Assembly (NCBI GenBank): GCA_034530615.2
Contig: JAVRCV020000065.1
Span: forward strand, 32,001 to 96,000
Reading direction: 5' to 3'
Origin: Aulosira sp. ZfuVER01
Lineage (GTDB): Bacteria > Cyanobacteriota > Cyanobacteriia > Cyanobacteriales > Nostocaceae
Length of the DNA stretch: 64,000 nucleotides
Position 1 is the stretch's first letter. Each line of letters starts with the position of its first letter. Position numbers and translations under genes: made by a program. The notes under the pieces are model-generated. The model made no database searches. It was not told the DNA's origin and saw only the letters and a program-made list of their open reading frames with translations. This document shows, one piece after another, positions 31,760 through 54,647 of the stretch.

Positions 31760-32656
31760 ATGAGTTTTTGGGATCTCGAAATTGATGCTGAATTAGAACA
31801 ATTGAAAAAAGAGCTAAGAAAACGCCACCTTCATAATGATTGTTCTTCTGGAGAGATGGATAGTGTTCTTGAAAAACTAAATAATCTGGTAGGTATGCAG
31901 AATGTTAAAGATGAAATCAATACTCTAATAAACTTTCTGAAAATTCAGAAACTACGCCAGGAAAAAAAACTTGCTACTGTTTCGGTTACACTTCACTCCG
32001 TGTTTTGTGGACCTCCTGGAACTGGAAAAACAACAGTAGCTCGTCTAATGGGCGAAATCTACAAAGAACTGGGGATACTTTCTAAAGGTCATCTGGTCGA
32101 AACTGATCGATCTGGATTAGTAGCAGGTTATATTGGGCAAACTGCTATTAAAGTTGATGCAATTATTGAATCAGCATTAGACGGCGTGCTGTTTATTGAT
32201 GAAGCCTATGCATTAAAGCCAGAAAATTCACGCAATGATTTCGGACAAGAAGCTATAGATACTCTTTTGAAAAGAATGGAGGATTATAGAGACAGGCTAG
32301 TAGTGATAGTGGCTGGTTATAATGAAGAAATGTCTAGATTTATAGATGCTAATCCTGGATTGCAGTCAAGATTTAACAAATATTTTTATTTTGAAGATTA
32401 TCAGCCTAACGACTTACTAAACATTTTTGAAAACATTTGTGAGCAACATCATTTCCATCTTACTGAGCAATCACAAAAAGCATTACTGCATAAATTAAAT
32501 GATTTATATGTAAGCCGAGATAAAAAGTTTGGTAATGGAAGGCTTGTGAGAAATATATTTGAAAAAACTATTGAGAAGCAAGCAAACAGACTTGTCACAA
32601 TTCCTGGAGTCAGCAAGGAAATGATGATGCAAATTATGCCCGAAGATATAGCTTGA
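31760..32656 (+). CDS. stand-alone AAA+ ATPase, SpoVK/CbbX family
   Basis: GPPGTGKTT, LVAGYIGQTA, LFIDEAY, NPGLQSRF, GNGRLVRN. Confidence 0.88.
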   Translation: MSFWDLEIDAELEQLKKELRKRHLHNDCSSGEMDSVLEKLNNLVGMQNVKDEINTLINFLKIQKLRQEKKLATVSVTLHSVFCGPPGTGKTTVARLMGEIYKELGILSKGHLVETDRSGLVAGYIGQTAIKVDAIIESALDGVLFIDEAYALKPENSRNDFGQEAIDTLLKRMEDYRDRLVVIVAGYNEEMSRFIDANPGLQSRFNKYFYFEDYQPNDLLNIFENICEQHHFHLTEQSQKALLHKLNDLYVSRDKKFGNGRLVRNIFEKTIEKQANRLVTIPGVSKEMMMQIMPEDIA

Positions 32657-46976: not shown

Positions 46977-47019
46977 AGACGCTTTCCTTACTAATCTCTT
47001 TTGCGGTAAGAAAGCGTCT
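46977..47019. terminator. terminator-like hairpin between convergent genes
   Basis: AGACGCTTTC / GAAAGCGTCT arms followed by TT. Confidence 0.6.
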
Positions 47020-47066
47020 TTGTATTAACGCACTATAAATGGCAATAGCATAGACATAGCACCATA

Positions 47067-47630
47067 CTAACTACCCATTTTTAACCAACCAAAAACTTGT
47101 TCGACAGTTAGTGCAAGTTCAATTTCTGGTAAGACTGGTAAAGAATCTTTTCCCTGGAGCAGTAATGGCTGTTGCTCTGGTAAAAATACTAAAATACTGA
47201 AGTCATCAGGGTCAAGAAACCATCCCAAGCGGCTACCATACTTCAGACAGTGCAGAATATTACCAATTACTTTATTAGGTTTTTGTTCTGGAGAGAGAAT
47301 TTCAATTGTCCAGTCTGGGGGAAGTTCAAAGTTATCAGGAACTTCTTCATCAACGGTGAATGGTATGCGAATCCACTGAAATACAGCCACATCGGGTACG
47401 ATGGAGCGTGAGCCAAAGCTACACCGTAATTCCGGAAACGCATAGGCAATTTTGCGATCCTCTGCAACTTGATTGACCGCAGCGCAGAGTTTACCTTGCA
47501 AGCGGCTGTGTCTCCCTTTGGGCATTGGCTTTTGAACGATCTCACCGTTAATATATTCGCTAGCAGGCTTGGTTTCTGGGATCTGAAGAAATTCTTCTAG
47601 AGTAAGGGGTTGGGCAGTTGTGGCGCTCAT
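47067..47630 (-). CDS. Uma2 family (PD-(D/E)xK) endonuclease-like protein
   Basis: LTLEEFLQIPETKPASEYING, SIVPDVAV, PDWTIEILSP. Confidence 0.9.
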   Translation of the reverse strand: MSATTAQPLTLEEFLQIPETKPASEYINGEIVQKPMPKGRHSRLQGKLCAAVNQVAEDRKIAYAFPELRCSFGSRSIVPDVAVFQWIRIPFTVDEEVPDNFELPPDWTIEILSPEQKPNKVIGNILHCLKYGSRLGWFLDPDDFSILVFLPEQQPLLLQGKDSLPVLPEIELALTVEQVFGWLKMGS

Positions 47631-47912
47631 AGCTCCAAAAATCCTGCGTGACGAGATGTATTTTTAGTCTAGCAACCCGAAGGCAAGCCACTTGATTGGA
47701 GAGCGATCGCATTTTTGATGAAAATAGAAAGGGCTATGCCTATGGTGGGCTGCACCTAAGCACTTCATGCTACTTTTCCGATATTTTTTACGGTTGATTT
47801 AGCCAAAATTGGATCGATATCTTGGCTTTTGCCGTGATTGCATCGGGTGACAATACCATTGCGTCACTGTAAATATTTTTGTTCAACTACTTATGCAAAA
47901 ACTCTCAGTGTT

Positions 47913-48401
47913 TTAGCTACTCAAAAGTAATCTTTCTTGGTGATAGCTATTTCGGAGTTCCTCTAACTTTTCTGGATTAAAAGCAAATTGAATTAACTCA
48001 ACTAGTTGTTCCCAACTATGTAATATATCTTCGGAGTGAGCTTGCCAGAATTCATTGGCGAAAAATTCCGCCCACCATTGGGGTGCTTGCTTATTTTGCT
48101 GAGGTTCATTTTGCTTACGCCAGCGTCTACGCCATTTCACAAAGTCTGATTTATTAGGCGGCTCTACACCCAGAATTGGCGGAAAATCAGCATAGCTGAC
48201 AAACTTACTCACGCCTTTAGCGTGGACATAAACCATGTAACGCCAGCATTCGACTGTATATATATCTTCAAAATTGATTTGGCATATTAAGCAAATTGCC
48301 TCTTCTGTGACAAATCGCGCTAGTGGGTGAACAATTGCTGATTTGTGAACTATTTTCGATTCACGGATGACAAGCGCTTTTGGCTTGAGTGATGATAACA
48401 T
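47913..48401 (-). CDS. hypothetical protein
   Basis: 162-aa ATG-started ORF, divergent from an HTH gene; no recognisable motif. Confidence 0.65.
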   Translation of the reverse strand: MLSSLKPKALVIRESKIVHKSAIVHPLARFVTEEAICLICQINFEDIYTVECWRYMVYVHAKGVSKFVSYADFPPILGVEPPNKSDFVKWRRRWRKQNEPQQNKQAPQWWAEFFANEFWQAHSEDILHSWEQLVELIQFAFNPEKLEELRNSYHQERLLLSS

Positions 48402-48600
48402 AAAGTTAAATTTCTGTTTAAAAGGAATGCCTTCCGTTTAAATGGAATGCTTACCGTTGAAAGAGACCACATCTCCTTTAACGGGATATGTGTAAAAAAA
48501 ACAAATGCAGTCGCCCTTTAGTTTTCCAGGCCAGAGGGCGATTGTTATTATTAGAATATAATAATTAAACGACTCATATAAGTCATTTGTCAAGCAAATT

Positions 48601-48813
48601 ATGGGAATGGTTAGGCTCAAGATTCGAGAATTTGCTGCTGAGAAGGGCTGGACGCTGAAAGAGGTATCTGACCGTTCTGGTGTAGTTTATAGTACTCTCA
48701 GAACCTATGCGCGATCGCCTGGGCTAGCAACTGTAGATTTTACCGCAATTCAGAAGTTAGCACGAACTTTTGATGTGATGATTGAGGAATTGGTGGAAGT
48801 CGTGCAGGAATAA
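48601..48813 (+). CDS. XRE/Cro-type helix-turn-helix regulator
   Basis: 70 aa: GWTLKEVSDRSGVVYSTLRTY...IQKLARTFDVMIEELV. Confidence 0.85.
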   Translation: MGMVRLKIREFAAEKGWTLKEVSDRSGVVYSTLRTYARSPGLATVDFTAIQKLARTFDVMIEELVEVVQE

Positions 48814-48830
48814 TCTATGTTTGTATGAGT

Positions 48831-48865
48831 GCGATGTCTAACTACAAGACGCGAAGCGTCCACGC
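48831..48865. repeat. short element inserted in a HIP1 site
   Basis: GCGAT[27 nt GTCTAACTACAAGACGCGAAGCGTCCA]CGC. Confidence 0.65.
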
Positions 48866-48871
48866 TTTATA

Positions 48872-49321
48872 TTAAGGCAACGGTGGAACCGCAAAGTCAT
48901 TAAAAGAGCAAACATCGTAAGAAGAATTGGCTAATGCCCTTACCAGCTTACCGTCAAGAGTGAGCAAAGTAGCGCTTACCTGTTGCGAAAGTGCAACATA
49001 AGAAGCATCGTAGGCGGAGATTCCATAAGTTAAGGCAATAGTAACCGCATCTACCATCAAGTCCGCTGTAGAGACAACATGTAATTGTAAACTCTTGAGA
49101 GTAGCTAAATCTGCTGTAACTTTGGCTGTAGGATAAAGACCAGCACGGATGTATTTCCACAAAACGTTAGCACTTTCAATGTAAAACAAATCAGGAACAA
49201 AGAATTGATTTTGAGAATTGGCAACGTGAGACAACAGTTGATCAACTTTAGAAGATATTGGATCTGGGACAAAGTGCTTGATACACACACTGACATCTAA
49301 GACACATCTAAGAGTAGTCAT
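48872..49321 (-). CDS. PIN-domain (VapC-type) toxin
   Basis: VLDVSV, FYIESANVLW, SAYDASYVAL, LLTLDGKL; 4-bp overlap with the upstream gene. Confidence 0.88.
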   Translation of the reverse strand: MTTLRCVLDVSVCIKHFVPDPISSKVDQLLSHVANSQNQFFVPDLFYIESANVLWKYIRAGLYPTAKVTADLATLKSLQLHVVSTADLMVDAVTIALTYGISAYDASYVALSQQVSATLLTLDGKLVRALANSSYDVCSFNDFAVPPLP

Positions 49322-49584
49322 CTATCCCGGTCTTCTCGAAGCATAACAGTACTATCAGGCCATTCGATATCTTTAGGAAGCTTTTCACGACGCAGACGAC
49401 TTTCCTCTAAAAGCTTGAGTACATTCTTTCGCCTTTCGTCTTCCGTTTCCTGTGTCTTTGTTTCCAAGGCATTCTGCAATATTGTAATAACTTGAGCATC
49501 AACTGAGCTATTTTCAGCCTTAGCTAACTCTTGCAGTCGTTCGTATAATTCATCAGGTATATTTAGCGGATGAAGGGTAGCCAT
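49318..49584 (-). CDS. FitA/Arc-like ribbon-helix-helix antitoxin
   Basis: MATLHPLNIPDELYERLQELAKAENSSVDAQV...DSTVMLREDRDR; coupled to the PIN gene. Confidence 0.82.
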   Translation of the reverse strand: MATLHPLNIPDELYERLQELAKAENSSVDAQVITILQNALETKTQETEDERRKNVLKLLEESRLRREKLPKDIEWPDSTVMLREDRDR

Positions 49585-49698
49585 ATCTTGACCTCCCAAA
49601 AGAATTTATTGGTAATGGTAGCACGATACAAGCAAGGATAAGAAAGGAGAATAAAAGGCAATGGTTAGCAATAAGATAAGCCGCTTCTCAGCTTGCTA

Positions 49699-50730
49699 CT
49701 AAACATCCAAACTCAACGATGTTTCTATTAATGAAAATTGTTGTTTTTTTGGCTGCGTATCTTTTTTCTCTGGTAATAGCCCAGCAGCATACAGGATTGC
49801 AATTATAGACAACACTACCATTAGCACATATAAAATTATATTACTTGTAGATTCACCAGTTATTGGATATGGGTTTACAGGTGGTACTATCACTTGAGTA
49901 ATTGATGAATTAGATGCTGTTGAAAGTATATCTAAATCTCTTAGGATTTCTTCAACTGATTGATATCTTACCTGAGATTCGTAGCGAACCATTTTAGTCA
50001 AAATACTTGCTAACCAATCACTAACGTTTGCTTTATCTCGCCAGATAACCTCTCCTAAATTATCTATTGGCAAGGATTGGGGTTCTAAACCTGTGAGTGC
50101 TTCAATTACTGTCATTCCTAATGCATAAATATCACTGTTGGGTAGAGAATGTCCTCGCATTTGCTCTACTGGAGCATAACCCTGCGTATAAATTTGAGTT
50201 CCCGGTTGTTGTAGTCTAGTATTTTGAGCAATACCTTCTTTGACTGCACCAAAGTCAATTAGAAACAAATCATCATCCTTACTTAAAATGATATTATCTG
50301 GTTTGATATCACGATGGATAACATCATTTATATGTAAAAACGCAAGAATATTTATTAATTTATCTAATATTTTTATAACTTCAGGCTCTTCTAGCTTTTG
50401 CCGATATTTTATTTCTTGACTTAAAGTATTTCCCTGAATATATTGTTGAATAAAGTAAAACTCTTGATTTTCTTCCAGATATTCAAAAAACTTAGGAATA
50501 TGTGGATATCCATTTAACTTGTGGAGAACTGTTGCTTCGCGTTGGAATAGTTCTTGAGCTTTAGTAACCTCACTTTGATTATTACTAGAGAAAGTAAAAT
50601 GCTTAACTGCATACTGAACTCCAGACTGAAACAAGTCATTCGCTAGATAAGTTCTGCTAAAACCACCTTCCCCAAGCAATGCAACAATCTCGTAACGTCC
50701 GCTGATAATTTTTGATAGCCCTGTATTCAT
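49699..50730 (-). CDS. membrane-anchored Hanks-type Ser/Thr protein kinase
   Basis: LGEGGFS, AVK, IHRDIKPDN, IDFG, GYAPVEQ, SDIYALG; C-terminal TM IILYVLMVVLSIIAILYAAGLL and short tail. Start trimmed to MNTGLSK. Confidence 0.9.
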   Translation of the reverse strand: MNTGLSKIISGRYEIVALLGEGGFSRTYLANDLFQSGVQYAVKHFTFSSNNQSEVTKAQELFQREATVLHKLNGYPHIPKFFEYLEENQEFYFIQQYIQGNTLSQEIKYRQKLEEPEVIKILDKLINILAFLHINDVIHRDIKPDNIILSKDDDLFLIDFGAVKEGIAQNTRLQQPGTQIYTQGYAPVEQMRGHSLPNSDIYALGMTVIEALTGLEPQSLPIDNLGEVIWRDKANVSDWLASILTKMVRYESQVRYQSVEEILRDLDILSTASNSSITQVIVPPVNPYPITGESTSNIILYVLMVVLSIIAILYAAGLLPEKKDTQPKKQQFSLIETSLSLDV

Positions 50731-50924
50731 GTGACACCACCGTAGCAGAGATTGTCCCAAGCAATCTTTGTCAATTAGTAACCTAGGCTGAACTGAGAAG
50801 ATAATTGACTAATTGTATTTAACGTATTTTATACTACAACAAACATGGTATAGTTAATTTTACATACTTAGAAGTTTTATTACATATTTCTCATCTATTA
50901 ATAAATTTTTGAAGTTACCAAATT

Positions 50925-52337
50925 ATGAAACAACTTTCACTTCGTTATGGTGTATTTATAATTTGCTTTGCCTTATTCTTACTTTATTTAATTACACCAT
51001 CATTTATACCTTGGTTTCCTTTTTTAATAGTTCTAGCCTTTGTGGGATTAACTGTAAAATCTACTATTGACGGTATTAGGCTAAAGAAGGCTTTACTTCA
51101 ACAAATAGATATAATAGAGCAAAAAATTCAGACTGAACTTATTCAGAAAGTTAAAGGTATTAGTAAAAATCAATATGAGAAAATTAATAAAATAGCTTTA
51201 ATAGAAAAAAGATGTAGTGAAAATCAAGAATTAAAAATTTGGGAAAGACATAAGCGCTCTTATCAATTACTTCCCAACTCCCTGTTAGCTCTTGGCTTAC
51301 TGGGGACGTTCTTAGGTATTACAATGAATTTATTCTTAATAAGTAGAAATACTGGTGGTGAACTGCAATTACAAAAAGCCTTACCAGATATTATTGGTTC
51401 AATGGCGATCGCATTCGTCAGTAGCCTGGCTGCATTAGCGGGAAGTGTGTTTCTAACAAAGTTTCACCCTACTTATGATTTAGATTTAGAGAAGGATAAA
51501 CTGCTAATTTCGTTAGAAGATTACCTTGATAATGATTTTTTCCTCTCTCAGAACCAGCCAACTGTGGCAGAAAAAATTGATGTTCTGATCAAGTCTATAG
51601 ACAACTATTCTAAAAGCTTAAACACTTTTATTACAACTCTACCGAAAAATACTCAAGATTTTCAAAATGCTGTAACAGCAGCTTCTAATATATTAAATAC
51701 ATCTGCTAATAATTTTCAGGCTGTAGCAAATCAGTCTTCGCAGTCGATGCAGACAGGCGCTAATGTTTTAAGCAATGCTACTAACAACTTAGTCAGATTA
51801 ACAACAACTTTCTCTGATATCACATCTTCTCTGCGTGACTCGACAAAATCTTTCGACAAAGCGATAGATAAATTAGAAGACTATGCAGATAATCTGCAAG
51901 ATATTGGTAAGGCTTTGGTTAATAACTCTTCACAAATCCAGAGCTTAATTCAAAACAATCAACAAAACTTGAATCAAGTGAGCGATCGCCTGGTGCAAAA
52001 TGCTAATACACTGTCAGCAACTAGCCAATCTTTCAATAATCATGTATCGCAGCTAACAACATCTTTAAGTCAGCACACAGGACAAGTTGGCAACCACAAT
52101 AATAGATTGCAGAGTTTAGCTGGAGTCATTGAAAATACTACACAGTCTTCTAATACAAATATATCTCAAGTAGTATCAGTGTTAAATCAAAATGCGTCGC
52201 TAGTAAGCAACCAAATTAATCAATTACAAAATATAGCAGAGAACATTGATCGGAATGCTCAAACAATGAAGCAAATTCAGACTAATTTTTCTGATTTATT
52301 AAATGCATTAGTACAATTACAAAAAACTGGAGGATAG
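50925..52337 (+). CDS. ZorA-like MotA/TolQ/ExbB channel protein with long helical tail
   Basis: N-terminal hydrophobic segments; LPNSLLALGLLGTFLGITMNL and IIGSMAIAFVSSLAALAGSV TMs; ~290-aa N/Q/S/T-rich coiled-coil-like tail. Confidence 0.75.
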   Translation: MKQLSLRYGVFIICFALFLLYLITPSFIPWFPFLIVLAFVGLTVKSTIDGIRLKKALLQQIDIIEQKIQTELIQKVKGISKNQYEKINKIALIEKRCSENQELKIWERHKRSYQLLPNSLLALGLLGTFLGITMNLFLISRNTGGELQLQKALPDIIGSMAIAFVSSLAALAGSVFLTKFHPTYDLDLEKDKLLISLEDYLDNDFFLSQNQPTVAEKIDVLIKSIDNYSKSLNTFITTLPKNTQDFQNAVTAASNILNTSANNFQAVANQSSQSMQTGANVLSNATNNLVRLTTTFSDITSSLRDSTKSFDKAIDKLEDYADNLQDIGKALVNNSSQIQSLIQNNQQNLNQVSDRLVQNANTLSATSQSFNNHVSQLTTSLSQHTGQVGNHNNRLQSLAGVIENTTQSSNTNISQVVSVLNQNASLVSNQINQLQNIAENIDRNAQTMKQIQTNFSDLLNALVQLQKTGG

Positions 52338-52358
52338 CCTCAATGGAGAAATCGCAAG

Positions 52359-53081
52359 ATGCGTAGAAGAACAAGAAGTTTACCGATGAATGATACTTTT
52401 AGCATCTGGACTTCTTTTACAGACTTAATGTCTAATGCTTTTATGATTATTACCTTGCTTTTATTATTAGTAATAGCTAGAAATTCCAAAAGTAATAATT
52501 CTCAGATATCAACTGGTGTAGATGATAAACCAACAATCATTGAATTGCCAGCAGAAAAATATAATTTTGATTCAGGTAGTGCAGTTTTACCGAATAATTT
52601 GAAAAATGATATTAGTCAGAATGGTAAAAATGGCATAATTTTAAAAGAAATTGAAAATAATATAAATAAAATTGAAAGTAGTAATAAAAAAGTTGATGTT
52701 ATAGAAGTTATTGGACATACCGACGGTGAAGAGGTTGGTTATTTAAAGTGTAGTAATCAAAGGGGTGGTAATTTAGATACAAAGCTAGAAGAAGTCGCTA
52801 CTCGTAATAAAGATGTTTCTATTCTTTGTCCAGGTTCTAATGCTGATTTAGGTTTAATGCGCGCCTTAGCAGTAGTTAAAGAACTGCAAAATGTGCAACG
52901 TCAAAAAAAATCAGGACTTTTCAAACGGCTAAAGTTTCGAGCCTATTCTGCGGCGCAACTACTTCTACCAGATGATCAAGGATTTGCGCCACCAAATAGA
53001 AGCAATAATCCCCAACGTCGGCGGATCGAAATTCGCTTCGCCCAACTGGGTCAGTATAAAACCCCAGGTAATAACCGCTAA
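52359..53081 (+). CDS. ZorB/MotB-like OmpA-domain membrane protein
   Basis: IWTSFTDLMSNAFMII TM with conserved Asp; FDSGSA, IEVIGHTD, NADLGLMRALAV, RRRIEIRF. Confidence 0.8.
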   Translation: MRRRTRSLPMNDTFSIWTSFTDLMSNAFMIITLLLLLVIARNSKSNNSQISTGVDDKPTIIELPAEKYNFDSGSAVLPNNLKNDISQNGKNGIILKEIENNINKIESSNKKVDVIEVIGHTDGEEVGYLKCSNQRGGNLDTKLEEVATRNKDVSILCPGSNADLGLMRALAVVKELQNVQRQKKSGLFKRLKFRAYSAAQLLLPDDQGFAPPNRSNNPQRRRIEIRFAQLGQYKTPGNNR

Positions 53082-53142
53082 TAATAATTAACCTTTGAAG
53101 CTACTTCAATTGGCTCCTGTAAAGTAAAAATATGAAATTATT

Positions 53143-53928
53143 TTACAACTGTTGTGATGTGTTAATAAAATATAATATTTCTTCTCGAGTGTAAGGAGGT
53201 TTACGCATATGAATCATAGCATGACAGTTAGGGCATACAGGACGTAAGTCTTTGATGGGATCAACTTCATATTCTTCTTTTATTTCTGATAGTGGCTTTA
53301 AGTGATGTATCTGTATAAAATCTTTACCGACATCACCATAAAATCTTGCAAAATTAAAGCCACAAATATAGCAACCTAAACCATGTGTAGCTAGGCATTT
53401 CTTACGTGCTTGAGAATTACGTTCATACGTATTAACCATAATTTGAGTAGTTGCACCCTCATAATATTTCTTTGGTTCAGTTACTTCTTCAGCAATCAAA
53501 AAAAGTTCTAACTTTCTTAAGTATCTAAAATTATTGAGAAACTGAGAGATATATTTTTTGGTTTTACCTTGACCGTACTTATATAAATAAAAACCCTCTT
53601 CTTTTTCTTTGATATGTAGCTTCCACTGATCACCATCAACAGTAGGGCAATCGCCCAACCAAAGTAATTCTTTAACAGGCAATACAAAAATTTTTTCGTC
53701 AGTGTCACAAATAAATAAAATAAATAAACCATCATCCTTAAACTTATCAAAATGTCCTTTGGTAATACCAAACCGAAATTCTTGCTTTGGCAAGCTCAAT
53801 TGTGAGTACCGAGGCATGACAAATTGATAATTCCATAACTTATAGATACTTCCACTTTCATGTTGATAATTCTGATCAAGCTCTCGTAAAACTTTTGTTT
53901 GATAGAATTCTGATCTTTCATTTCTCAT
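53143..53928 (-). CDS. HNH endonuclease (McrA-like C-terminus) with unknown N-terminal domain
   Basis: YEG..VNTYERNSQARKKC, CYICGFNF, IQIHHLKPLSE, DLRPVCPNCHAMIH. Confidence 0.87.
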   Translation of the reverse strand: MRNERSEFYQTKVLRELDQNYQHESGSIYKLWNYQFVMPRYSQLSLPKQEFRFGITKGHFDKFKDDGLFILFICDTDEKIFVLPVKELLWLGDCPTVDGDQWKLHIKEKEEGFYLYKYGQGKTKKYISQFLNNFRYLRKLELFLIAEEVTEPKKYYEGATTQIMVNTYERNSQARKKCLATHGLGCYICGFNFARFYGDVGKDFIQIHHLKPLSEIKEEYEVDPIKDLRPVCPNCHAMIHMRKPPYTREEILYFINTSQQL

Positions 53929-54120
53929 ACATCAAGATGTGATATTAATTTTAGCTTTTATTGCATTATTATTGCAAATATAGCTCTATATAGCTACTGC
54001 TCATCTATCGCTCATTCTTAATTAAAATGATTCTCTGTATATGAGTATTACTGTTTTATAAATGATATTATAGGCAATTTATATGAAAGAAAAGGAAGTT
54101 AGTAATCAACTGGAAACAAA

Positions 54121-54156
54121 TTATTTAACTATTGTTTCTGTCCAGTAAACATTCAC
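54121..54156 (-). pseudogene. truncated RelE/ParE-type toxin N-terminus
   Basis: GTG overlaps the upstream TGA (GTGA coupling); reads MNVYWTETIVK* and stops. Confidence 0.5.
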
Positions 54157-54344
54157 TCTGGTAGTCCAAATTTTTTCCGCACTTCTTGTACAGAAATTAC
54201 ATTACTAGCTTTGCTATCTTCAAACCCAGCTTCCACTGTTTGTCGTACATAAATTTGATACATCAAATCATCCCATGTGGAATTTTCTGGTAATCTGTCA
54301 ATTAATTTATGAGCTTCTTGTTTAATCTTGATATTTTTCATCAA
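54153..54344 (-). CDS. small antitoxin-like protein (ParE/RelE partner type)
   Basis: KQEAHKLIDRLPENSTWDDLMYQIYVRQTVEAG.EDS...ISVQEVRKKFG. Confidence 0.72.
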   Translation of the reverse strand: MMKNIKIKQEAHKLIDRLPENSTWDDLMYQIYVRQTVEAGFEDSKASNVISVQEVRKKFGLPE

Positions 54345-54473
54345 TAGTTAACCAAATACTATTCATACAGCTTTGGATATATTGTAGATGCAAAATAGAC
54401 GCGGCATTTCATCTCTACCTATCTTCTAGAAAGGAGGCTTCTGCACTTCTATTATTAACAAAAAATGATTCAA

Positions 54474-54558
54474 CGGAGAGGGGGAGATTCGAACTCCCGG
54501 AGGTTTTAGCCTCATCCGATTTCAAGTCGGACGCAATCGACCACTCTGCCACCTCTCC
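54474..54558 (-). tRNA. tRNA-Ser (anticodon TGA)
   Basis: Reverse complement GGAGAGGTGGCAGAGTGGTCGATTGCGTCCGACTTGAAATCGGATGAGGCTAAAACCTCCGGGAGTTCGAATCTCCCCCTCTCCG; long variable arm, TTCGAAT T-loop, no encoded CCA. Confidence 0.96.
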
Positions 54559-54647
54559 AGTAAACTGTCTAGCTTGTTGCTTACCTGCTAGGTAAACGCT
54601 TTCCTAAGTTAGCACAAAAGCAGACAGATAATACTATATCTCATCAT

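Follow-up and report, generated by a model that had tools for sequence, protein, structure and literature searches.

A kinase-linked ZorA-like/ZorB-like gene module in heterocyst-forming cyanobacteria

Gene organisation of the locus

The stretch of DNA analysed here (the window; 64,000 nucleotides, positions 32,001 to 96,000 of contig JAVRCV020000065.1 of Aulosira sp. ZfuVER01) contains a gene for a membrane-anchored Ser/Thr kinase that is divergent from two adjacent genes for a ZorA-like and a ZorB-like protein, referred to below as the A and B subunits. The features of this three-gene module are as follows.

49699-50730, minus strand: kinase, Hanks-type Ser/Thr kinase, 343 aa from an ATG start or 353 aa from an upstream TTG
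50731-50924, no strand: 194 bp spacer between the divergent kinase and A genes, presumably holding both promoters
50925-52337, plus strand: A subunit, 470 aa, placed by sequence in the ZorA lineage; relative of 'B7' (Makarova-Koonin family)
52359-53081, plus strand: B subunit, 240 aa, ZorB/MotB-type, with transmembrane (TM) Asp22, a short linker and an OmpA-type peptidoglycan-binding domain

From the open reading frame (ORF) coordinates, the intergenic distances are 194 bp between the kinase and A, 21 bp between A and B, and 61 bp between B and a convergent HNH nuclease gene. These four ORFs, their orientations, the 194-bp spacer and the 21-bp gap are as given in an earlier annotation made from the sequence alone (the sequence-only reading), which had also reported that no co-oriented effector gene follows B; there is no co-oriented gene downstream of B here, and none is conserved in relatives. 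Two features escaped that reading, namely a tRNA-Ser gene to the right of the block and the low GC content of the block itself (32-34%, with a GC3, the GC fraction at third codon positions, of 0.21-0.26, versus 41% GC genome-wide). The host genome (8.0 Mb, 99.99% complete) is indicated by its named relatives to belong to the heterocyst-forming cyanobacteria; A, B and the HNH gene are single-copy in it, and the kinase query gave 71 tblastn matches. The kinase-A spacer is 95-274 bp long in most relatives, with AT-rich blocks conserved in part. A promoter scan of the spacer performed no better than on shuffled sequence, and a terminator scan was likewise at chance level.

The A and B subunits resemble the Zorya motor

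The A subunit has hydrophobic segments at approximately residues 2-49, 115-140 and 152-180, followed by 290 residues to the C-terminus. This tail is predicted to be helical, with a hydrophobic periodicity of 3.5 residues, in agreement with the helical tail of about 290 aa noted previously; the helical part, of about 255-290 residues, is Ser/Thr-rich. A profile built from 46 A sequences and searched against the Protein Data Bank (PDB) ranked EcZorA (8qyd) first (E 1.7e-15), followed by Shewanella ZorA (8vvn). When the profile was limited to the membrane core (32 sequences, the tail being excluded to remove coiled-coil bias), the search retrieved nothing but type I and type II ZorA chains (E 2.8e-9 to 5.5e-4); chains of MotA, ExbB and TolQ were all absent to E 10. 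Counted along the profile-PDB alignment, P117, L125, T128 and S167 of A align with P136, I144, T147 and S184 of EcZorA, which have been described as a kink, a neighbour of the Asp and an ion filter (PMC11946911); all four are invariant in 46/46 A rows. At the Ca2+ site, the E86/E89 region of EcZorA was unaligned, and the invariant E198 and mostly conserved Y200 of A lie near the D217/Y220 region. The library models gave weaker signals, with PADLOC ZorA matching at E 3e-12 (a weak library score) and Pfam MotA_ExbB at 14.9 bits against a cut-off of 22.9.

The AlphaFold model of A (pLDDT, the predicted local distance difference test, 70.9; pTM, the predicted template modelling score, 0.42) is all-helical, with a tail spanning residues 214-468 (block pLDDT 40-81) and with the approximately 40-residue hydrophobic N-terminal stretch forming two helices, and Foldseek ranked ZorA first for this model (E 5.8e-3). 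Three observations speak against a ZorA assignment: the curated NCBIfam ZorA cut-offs were missed by a wide margin (26.2, 23.8 and 17.5 bits against cut-offs of 250, 190 and 500, respectively), no Foldseek match reached E 1e-3, and the VIA Z values for ZorA (11.2-11.3) were tied with those for TolQ/ExbB (10.3-10.6) and for designed helical bundles. Going by fold, A thus belongs to the stator class; its assignment to the ZorA lineage comes from sequence only.

The B subunit carries the TM Asp22 and a GHTD motif, and its Pfam OmpA match is weak (E 4e-4, under the cut-off); the MotB-type protein with a TM Asp and an OmpA-like domain in the sequence-only reading is thereby recovered. PADLOC ZorB matched at E 2e-7, and a 65-sequence B profile searched against the PDB ranked ZorB (8vvn_B, E 7e-8) above PomB (E 1e-3). 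D22 is retained in 62/63 rows covering the position; GHTD, N161 and R168 are present in 65/65 rows, and in 57/65 rows only 15-27 residues separate the TM segment from the first strand, so that there is no long plug-linker. A Zorya-like motor had been proposed for the pair in that reading, and the PDB profile searches with A, the A core and B place it by sequence with ZorA/ZorB rather than with MotAB, ExbBD or TolQR.

Among known systems, the ZorA5B2 complex of Zorya (EcZorAB 8QYD, Shewanella 8VVN and type II 8VVI; PMC11946911, PMC11890865) is the best sequence match for both subunits, sharing with them the Pro/Thr/Ser residues of A, the Asp of B, the long helical tail and an OmpA-type domain without a long plug-linker. 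Unlike EcZorA, A has a shorter tail and four predicted TM segments rather than three. MotAB/PomAB, ExbBD and TolQR belong to the same fold class, but lack a long tail on the A subunit; ExbBD and TolQR are similar in fold to A, whereas the A core has no sequence match to ExbB or TolQ chains. By the criteria for flagellar MotAB (10.1101/2024.07.22.604496), the pair differs in having no plug-linker in B and no FliG in the host genome (profile search; control positive in 4/14). Three other genes of the MotA/ExbB family in the host genome exceed the Pfam cut-off.

Unlike Zorya, a divergent TM kinase stands beside the pair instead of ZorC, ZorD, ZorE, ZorF or ZorG. No PADLOC match to ZorC-G was found among the scanned neighbour proteins, as expected from the claim that no canonical Zorya effector lies beside the pair; the genome-wide searches with PF15611 and PF11828 (ZorC/ZorF) also gave no match, but neither control gave a signal. 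The defining genes of Zorya III are ZorF/ZorG (PMC8565338). The locus, inferred to work like ZorAB, falls outside Zorya I-III and is an undescribed kinase-ZorA-like-ZorB-like module. Searches of the Creative Commons-licensed full text of PMC and bioRxiv turned up no account of a ZorAB-type pair linked to a kinase; subscription papers or supplements could hold one.

The kinase is a dedicated partner of the A/B pair

The kinase matches Pfam Pkinase (E 1e-36) with intact catalytic motifs, and K43, E65, HRD139-141, N146, D159 and G161 are invariant in 22/22 linked kinases. It has a single TM segment (approximately 292-322) and a C-terminal tail of about 20 residues, without a sensor domain, and is accordingly the TM-anchored, divergent Ser/Thr kinase described earlier. 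Its top PADLOC match is PD-T4-6 (E 7e-119), a Hanks-kinase match that proved unspecific when eight unrelated paralogues from the host genome were used as a control. These scored 268-355 bits, almost as high as the kinase itself (390 bits), so that the match says only 'cyanobacterial Hanks kinase'.

In a survey of the best 79 of 299 B relatives, the kinase was beside the pair at 29/79 loci, being divergent in 28 and convergent behind B in one (L028); the one convergent case indicates that the link survives rearrangement. In the B tree (75 rows, five loci with split, short or mis-called B being left out), a group of 29 rows has the kinase in 27; of the remaining two, one lies at a contig edge (L027) and the other keeps a 65-codon kinase remnant (L033). 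The co-occurrence of the genes was determined in 201 evenly sampled genomes from the host family, scoring ten kinase candidates per genome (most genomes hold some 50-130). The linked-kinase profile identified 28/201 genomes at 388 bits or more, full length and with a short ORF, all other kinases scoring at most 369, and the kinase-type A profile identified the identical 28 genomes at 379 bits or more, the next separate gene scoring 142. Both genes were therefore present in 28/201 genomes and neither in 173/201, counts to be read with the profiles having been built from the same loci and the sampled genomes being partly kin; the samples of the separate surveys overlap, and their counts are not additive. 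Kinase and A are adjacent in 27/28 genomes, the exception (G421) holding an intact kinase 0.84 Mb from A, and their presence varies together inside three genera (g176, g147 and g10). At an empty site (G101), from which all three genes are missing together, a NERD-helicase gene lies directly beside a leuB-like gene, and relatives hold kinase-A-B between them. The neighbourhood survey suggested by the sequence-only reading thus bore out the kinase link (29 of the best 79 loci) and not that to HNH (0/11 syntenic relatives, see below).

In a FastTree phylogeny with 18 host-genome paralogues and five near neighbours from other genomes as comparators, the linked kinases fall on one side of a branch with a support of 92, and the kinase tree and A+B tree yield the same main subgroups. 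Among metagenomic loci, 8/80 are kinase-type, with the kinase adjacent in 6/6 having upstream DNA, and 0/72 of the others have a kinase orthologue. Kinase, A and B are all under purifying selection, the ratio of nonsynonymous to synonymous substitutions (dN/dS) being 0.05-0.12 for the membrane part of A, 0.07-0.25 for its tail, 0.09-0.17 for B and 0.21-0.28 for the kinase. The A tails of kinase-type loci contain 20-29% Ser+Thr and 5-10% acidic residues, compared with 13-19% and 11-15% in others (23 sequences each), and conserved sites specific to the subtype include T293, S353, S367, S369 and S375. Together these data identify the kinase as a true, dedicated partner of A/B, the three genes being inherited as a unit.

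All carriers form one clade, so that the Ser/Thr enrichment is a single event and the co-occurrence counts overstate independence. Three loci speak against strict coupling: at L039 A and B are broken although the kinase reading frame is intact, at L042 B is split, and at L051 B is broken and neither partner is present. An alternative is that the kinase only hitch-hikes beside the pair and that A/B is an orphan left over from the FtsZl1 operon described below. The relatedness of all carriers, the divergent rather than co-transcribed kinase, the kinase left intact at L039 or displaced in G421, and the existence of stand-alone FtsZl1-type pairs (21 of the best 60 loci, with neither partner) are in its favour. 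However, 0/201 genomes have just one of the two, kinase orthologue or A subtype, the linkage persists in the convergent arrangement and across many unrelated flanks, and the A/B pair is a long-branch subfamily of its own under purifying selection, which makes hitch-hiking very unlikely. A 724-aa NERD-UvrD helicase, found beside the kinase in some lineages and considered as a ZorD stand-in, was rejected, being present in 85/201 genomes, but not that of the host, and showing no tracking with the module.

A sister family of A and B in the vWA-FtsZl1 operon

Most other homologues end a four-gene run consisting of a vWA-like gene (~380 aa), a Tubulin_2 protein gene (~1085 aa, E 5e-110), A and B, a tie of the sister family that the sequence-only reading did not notice. 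In gene order and sizes the run matches Ava_1847 (vWA), Ava_1848 (FtsZl1), Ava_1849 ('B7') and Ava_1850 (COG1360), the operon order given by Makarova and Koonin in 2010, who predicted membrane remodelling for the FtsZl1 operon, listed Ser/Thr kinases as frequent neighbours of it, and described a Deinococcus locus, DR_0538-0534, with MotA-like, OmpA-like and kinase genes (PMC2875224). A sample of the phylum gave a B match in 62/301 genomes, and the best 60 places had FtsZl1 in 33, the kinase in six and neither in 21. The sister family shares with the kinase-type pair one alignment and the invariant cores of A and B, at 22-27% identity in A and ~40-50% in B, but the kinase-type subfamily has no adjacent vWA or FtsZl1. 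FtsZl1 and this vWA family are both absent from the host genome (tblastn; PF13809, control positive in 3/14), and full FtsZl1 occurs in 5/31 kinase-type genomes, always alongside a separate A/B pair (one interrupted). In the concatenated A+B tree (51 rows), a long branch (0.9, SH-aLRT 100) sets the 15 kinase-type rows apart, and they fall outside the FtsZl1 group of the Nostocales. An origin in place from the operon of that group is not supported, and, the tree being unrooted, no order of events is claimed.

The survey also yielded observations on the wider family. The vWA-FtsZl1-A-B operon is widespread in cyanobacteria (L044-L088, L121-L187), with an A of ~480-1030 aa, and is often interrupted (L136, L157, L162, L175, L184); the operon pair of L046 is ZorAB-like by PADLOC (E 1e-14 and 4e-8). 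Stand-alone pairs in which A has a short tail (366-400 aa) and B in many cases contains a coiled-coil insert were found at L055, L064, L074, L089, L090, L140, L144 and L145; they have no kinase or FtsZl1 in the vicinity, and several of them follow phoH directly. A second FtsZl1 type (~915 aa) occurs at L191-L194 in a three-gene run of 600, 915 and 1015 aa without A/B, whose sizes match Ava_4733-4731 (supplement 5 of PMC2875224). An A/B-like pair (484 and 276 aa) lies behind uncharacterised 630- and 1248-aa genes at L218:65-8057 (G461:C3), and at L043 and L045 B follows a DEP-domain gene, A being undetected, as if lost. A divergent B homologue, which lacks the FTDLM motif and has a Glu near the TM start instead, is located directly upstream of a vWA-PP2C-kinase trio at L220:2159-6822 (G378:C11) and L221:3506-6457 (G450:C64). 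This trio, assigned by Pfam domains, presumably resembles TerY-P, and it constitutes a second link of the motor family to phosphorylation.

The HNH gene is cargo of a tRNA-Ser hotspot

The features flanking the module are as follows.

53143-53928, minus strand: HNH gene, 261 aa, McrA-like endonuclease; outside the module, hotspot cargo
54473-54559, minus strand: tRNA-Ser(TGA) (ARAGORN), right-hand anchor of the variable cargo site
48601-49584, no single strand: HTH, PIN toxin and RHH antitoxin genes (Pfam), on the left of the variable site and not specific to the module

The HNH protein matches the Pfam HNH domain (E 1e-5), PADLOC mREase_IV and EcoKMcrA (6ghc, E 1.3e-5), and an Atlas search with its N-terminal part gave leads only, towards restriction-enzyme-like folds. 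The sequence-only reading had raised it as a possible output of the motor, and if the convergent HNH acted as ZorE, the locus would be a Zorya II-like system; this would be consistent with ZorE being an HNH nickase (PMC11890865) and with the adjacency, which is seen in the host genome only. Against this, all 11 close relatives (86-94% identity in B) have kinase-A-B and 0/11 have the HNH gene (one contig ends 440 bp past B), the PADLOC ZorE profile gave no match to E 1, the protein is McrA-like, and its three detected relatives (including L199 and L200) have no A/B nearby. The HNH was rejected as an effector on these grounds, a ZorE role being highly improbable, and the nuclease is a passenger, McrA-like cargo of the tRNA-Ser hotspot.

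The tRNA-Ser is present at 10/11 close loci, and the slot between B and the tRNA-Ser contains GmrSD-HNH, a reverse transcriptase of the DRT class (PADLOC), HTH-IrrE, HEPN, NACHT or DUF6884 genes in relatives, or is empty; MazF is also among its cargo. The hotspot was further analysed at 20 loci sharing its chromosomal anchor, taken from genomes selected because the module is missing there. The full interval to the tRNA-Ser was visible at 11/20, of which six carry HerA/NurA/HNH/TGT, HerA, NACHT, NB-ARC or AAA/helicase genes, and most carry toxin-antitoxin genes. The genome with the most similar 162-aa anchor protein (G386, 90% identity) has HerA-NurA-HNH-TGT at the site. The PIN-RHH pair, the HTH gene and the 162-aa ORF, which also occur at the site in genomes without the module, were rejected as components. 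No repeat of the tRNA-Ser 3' end longer than 11 bp was found in the window.

Four further observations concern this site. The interval from an S1-domain gene, the 162-aa ORF and the HTH gene to the tRNA-Ser(TGA) is a family-wide cargo hotspot (window 47000-54560; L312, L315-L331); the run in G386 (DUF6884-NurA-HNH-HerA-TGT, L315:4196-9921) is apparently unnamed; a 62-aa antitoxin-like ORF without Pfam match lies at 54153-54341 (minus strand) of the window, where the toxin neighbour seen at L014 and L021 seems missing; and a 997-aa reverse transcriptase with a whole-length PADLOC RT_UG35 match (L016:7923-10916) occupies the slot held by the HNH gene of the window.

Proposed function of the module

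ZorAB is the sensing part of Zorya I and II (PMC11946911, PMC11890865). A motor co-inherited with a kinase in place of the Zorya nucleases would likely turn envelope damage into a phosphorylation signal, and by this analogy we tentatively propose, at somewhat less than even odds, that the A/B motor senses the envelope and signals to its own kinase in phage defence, a role that is our leading guess. On the model of EcZorAB, A and B would assemble in the inner membrane as a 5:2 complex; upon envelope perturbation, probably phage attack, B would grip the peptidoglycan, ions would pass Asp22, gated by Thr128 and Ser167, and the A ring and its ~38-nm tail would turn or change shape. Movement of the tail may then cluster or activate the sensor-less kinase, with no recruitment of ZorC, ZorD or ZorE, and the kinase may phosphorylate the Ser/Thr-rich tail and/or host targets, resulting in growth arrest or a stress response. 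Of the two outputs envisaged earlier, phosphorylation and/or the adjacent nuclease, the former is in keeping with the kinase link (28/28 genomes, same subgroups) and the latter is not borne out (HNH in 0/11 relatives). The patchy spread (28/201), the low GC, the hotspot site and the closest solved relatives by sequence, all Zorya subunits, argue for defence.

Other features of the distribution count against a defence role. Kinase-A-B is fixed in 11/11 sampled genomes of the host genus, and at 15 loci outside it housekeeping genes make up most of the flanks (dxr, leuB, secA, ppa, ftsX, ribF and mutY-like; labels such as leuB, nadA, secA and mutY are based on Pfam domains or are provisional). 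Only 4/46 flanking proteins match PADLOC, through generic domains; a plasmid collection gave only six weak partial matches and no close relative, a phage collection gave no matches, and no effector gene linked to the module was found. The subtype is present in 7/401 genomes of the order, all of one family (f1), and in one Microcystaceae metagenome-assembled genome (L058). The restriction to one family, the fixation in the genus and the housekeeping neighbours, together with the membrane remodelling predicted for the sister family (PMC2875224), would fit the same three genes serving ordinary envelope physiology or development of heterocyst-formers, such as wall-stress sensing or remodelling. 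This role is considered rather unlikely, with the module not found in 173/201 family genomes and located in defence-type hotspots in several lineages, and with Zorya subunits as its closest solved relatives.

The signal could also run in reverse, with the kinase as the switch and A/B as the effector, tail phosphorylation opening or closing an ion channel and causing depolarisation, dormancy or abortive infection. The missing downstream effector gene and the Ser/Thr-rich tail confined to kinase-linked copies are compatible with this, and ZorAB has in the past been suggested to act as a channel (PMC8565338). Against it, the wall-binding domain is in B whereas the kinase lacks any sensor domain, and ZorAB acts as a sensor in Zorya I and II; the reversed direction is judged unlikely, more so than the envelope role. 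With sensing by the motor retained as the preferred direction, the module may possibly, and with less assurance than the sensing role itself, represent a fourth Zorya-lineage immunity in which a rotary envelope sensor outputs to phosphorylation and not DNA cutting, as a plug-in sensor wired either to a tubulin-like GTPase/vWA or to a kinase.

In a three-gene motor system with a kinase as sole partner, phosphorylation would, if this proposal is true, be a direct biochemical read-out of motor activation, and ZorA-lineage motors would have a use other than recruiting nucleases. Cultured strains of heterocyst-formers carry the module (for example the named records L017, L020 and L021), which makes the proposal testable, and the survey connects the FtsZl1 operon of cyanobacteria, long unexplained, with a ZorAB-type motor.

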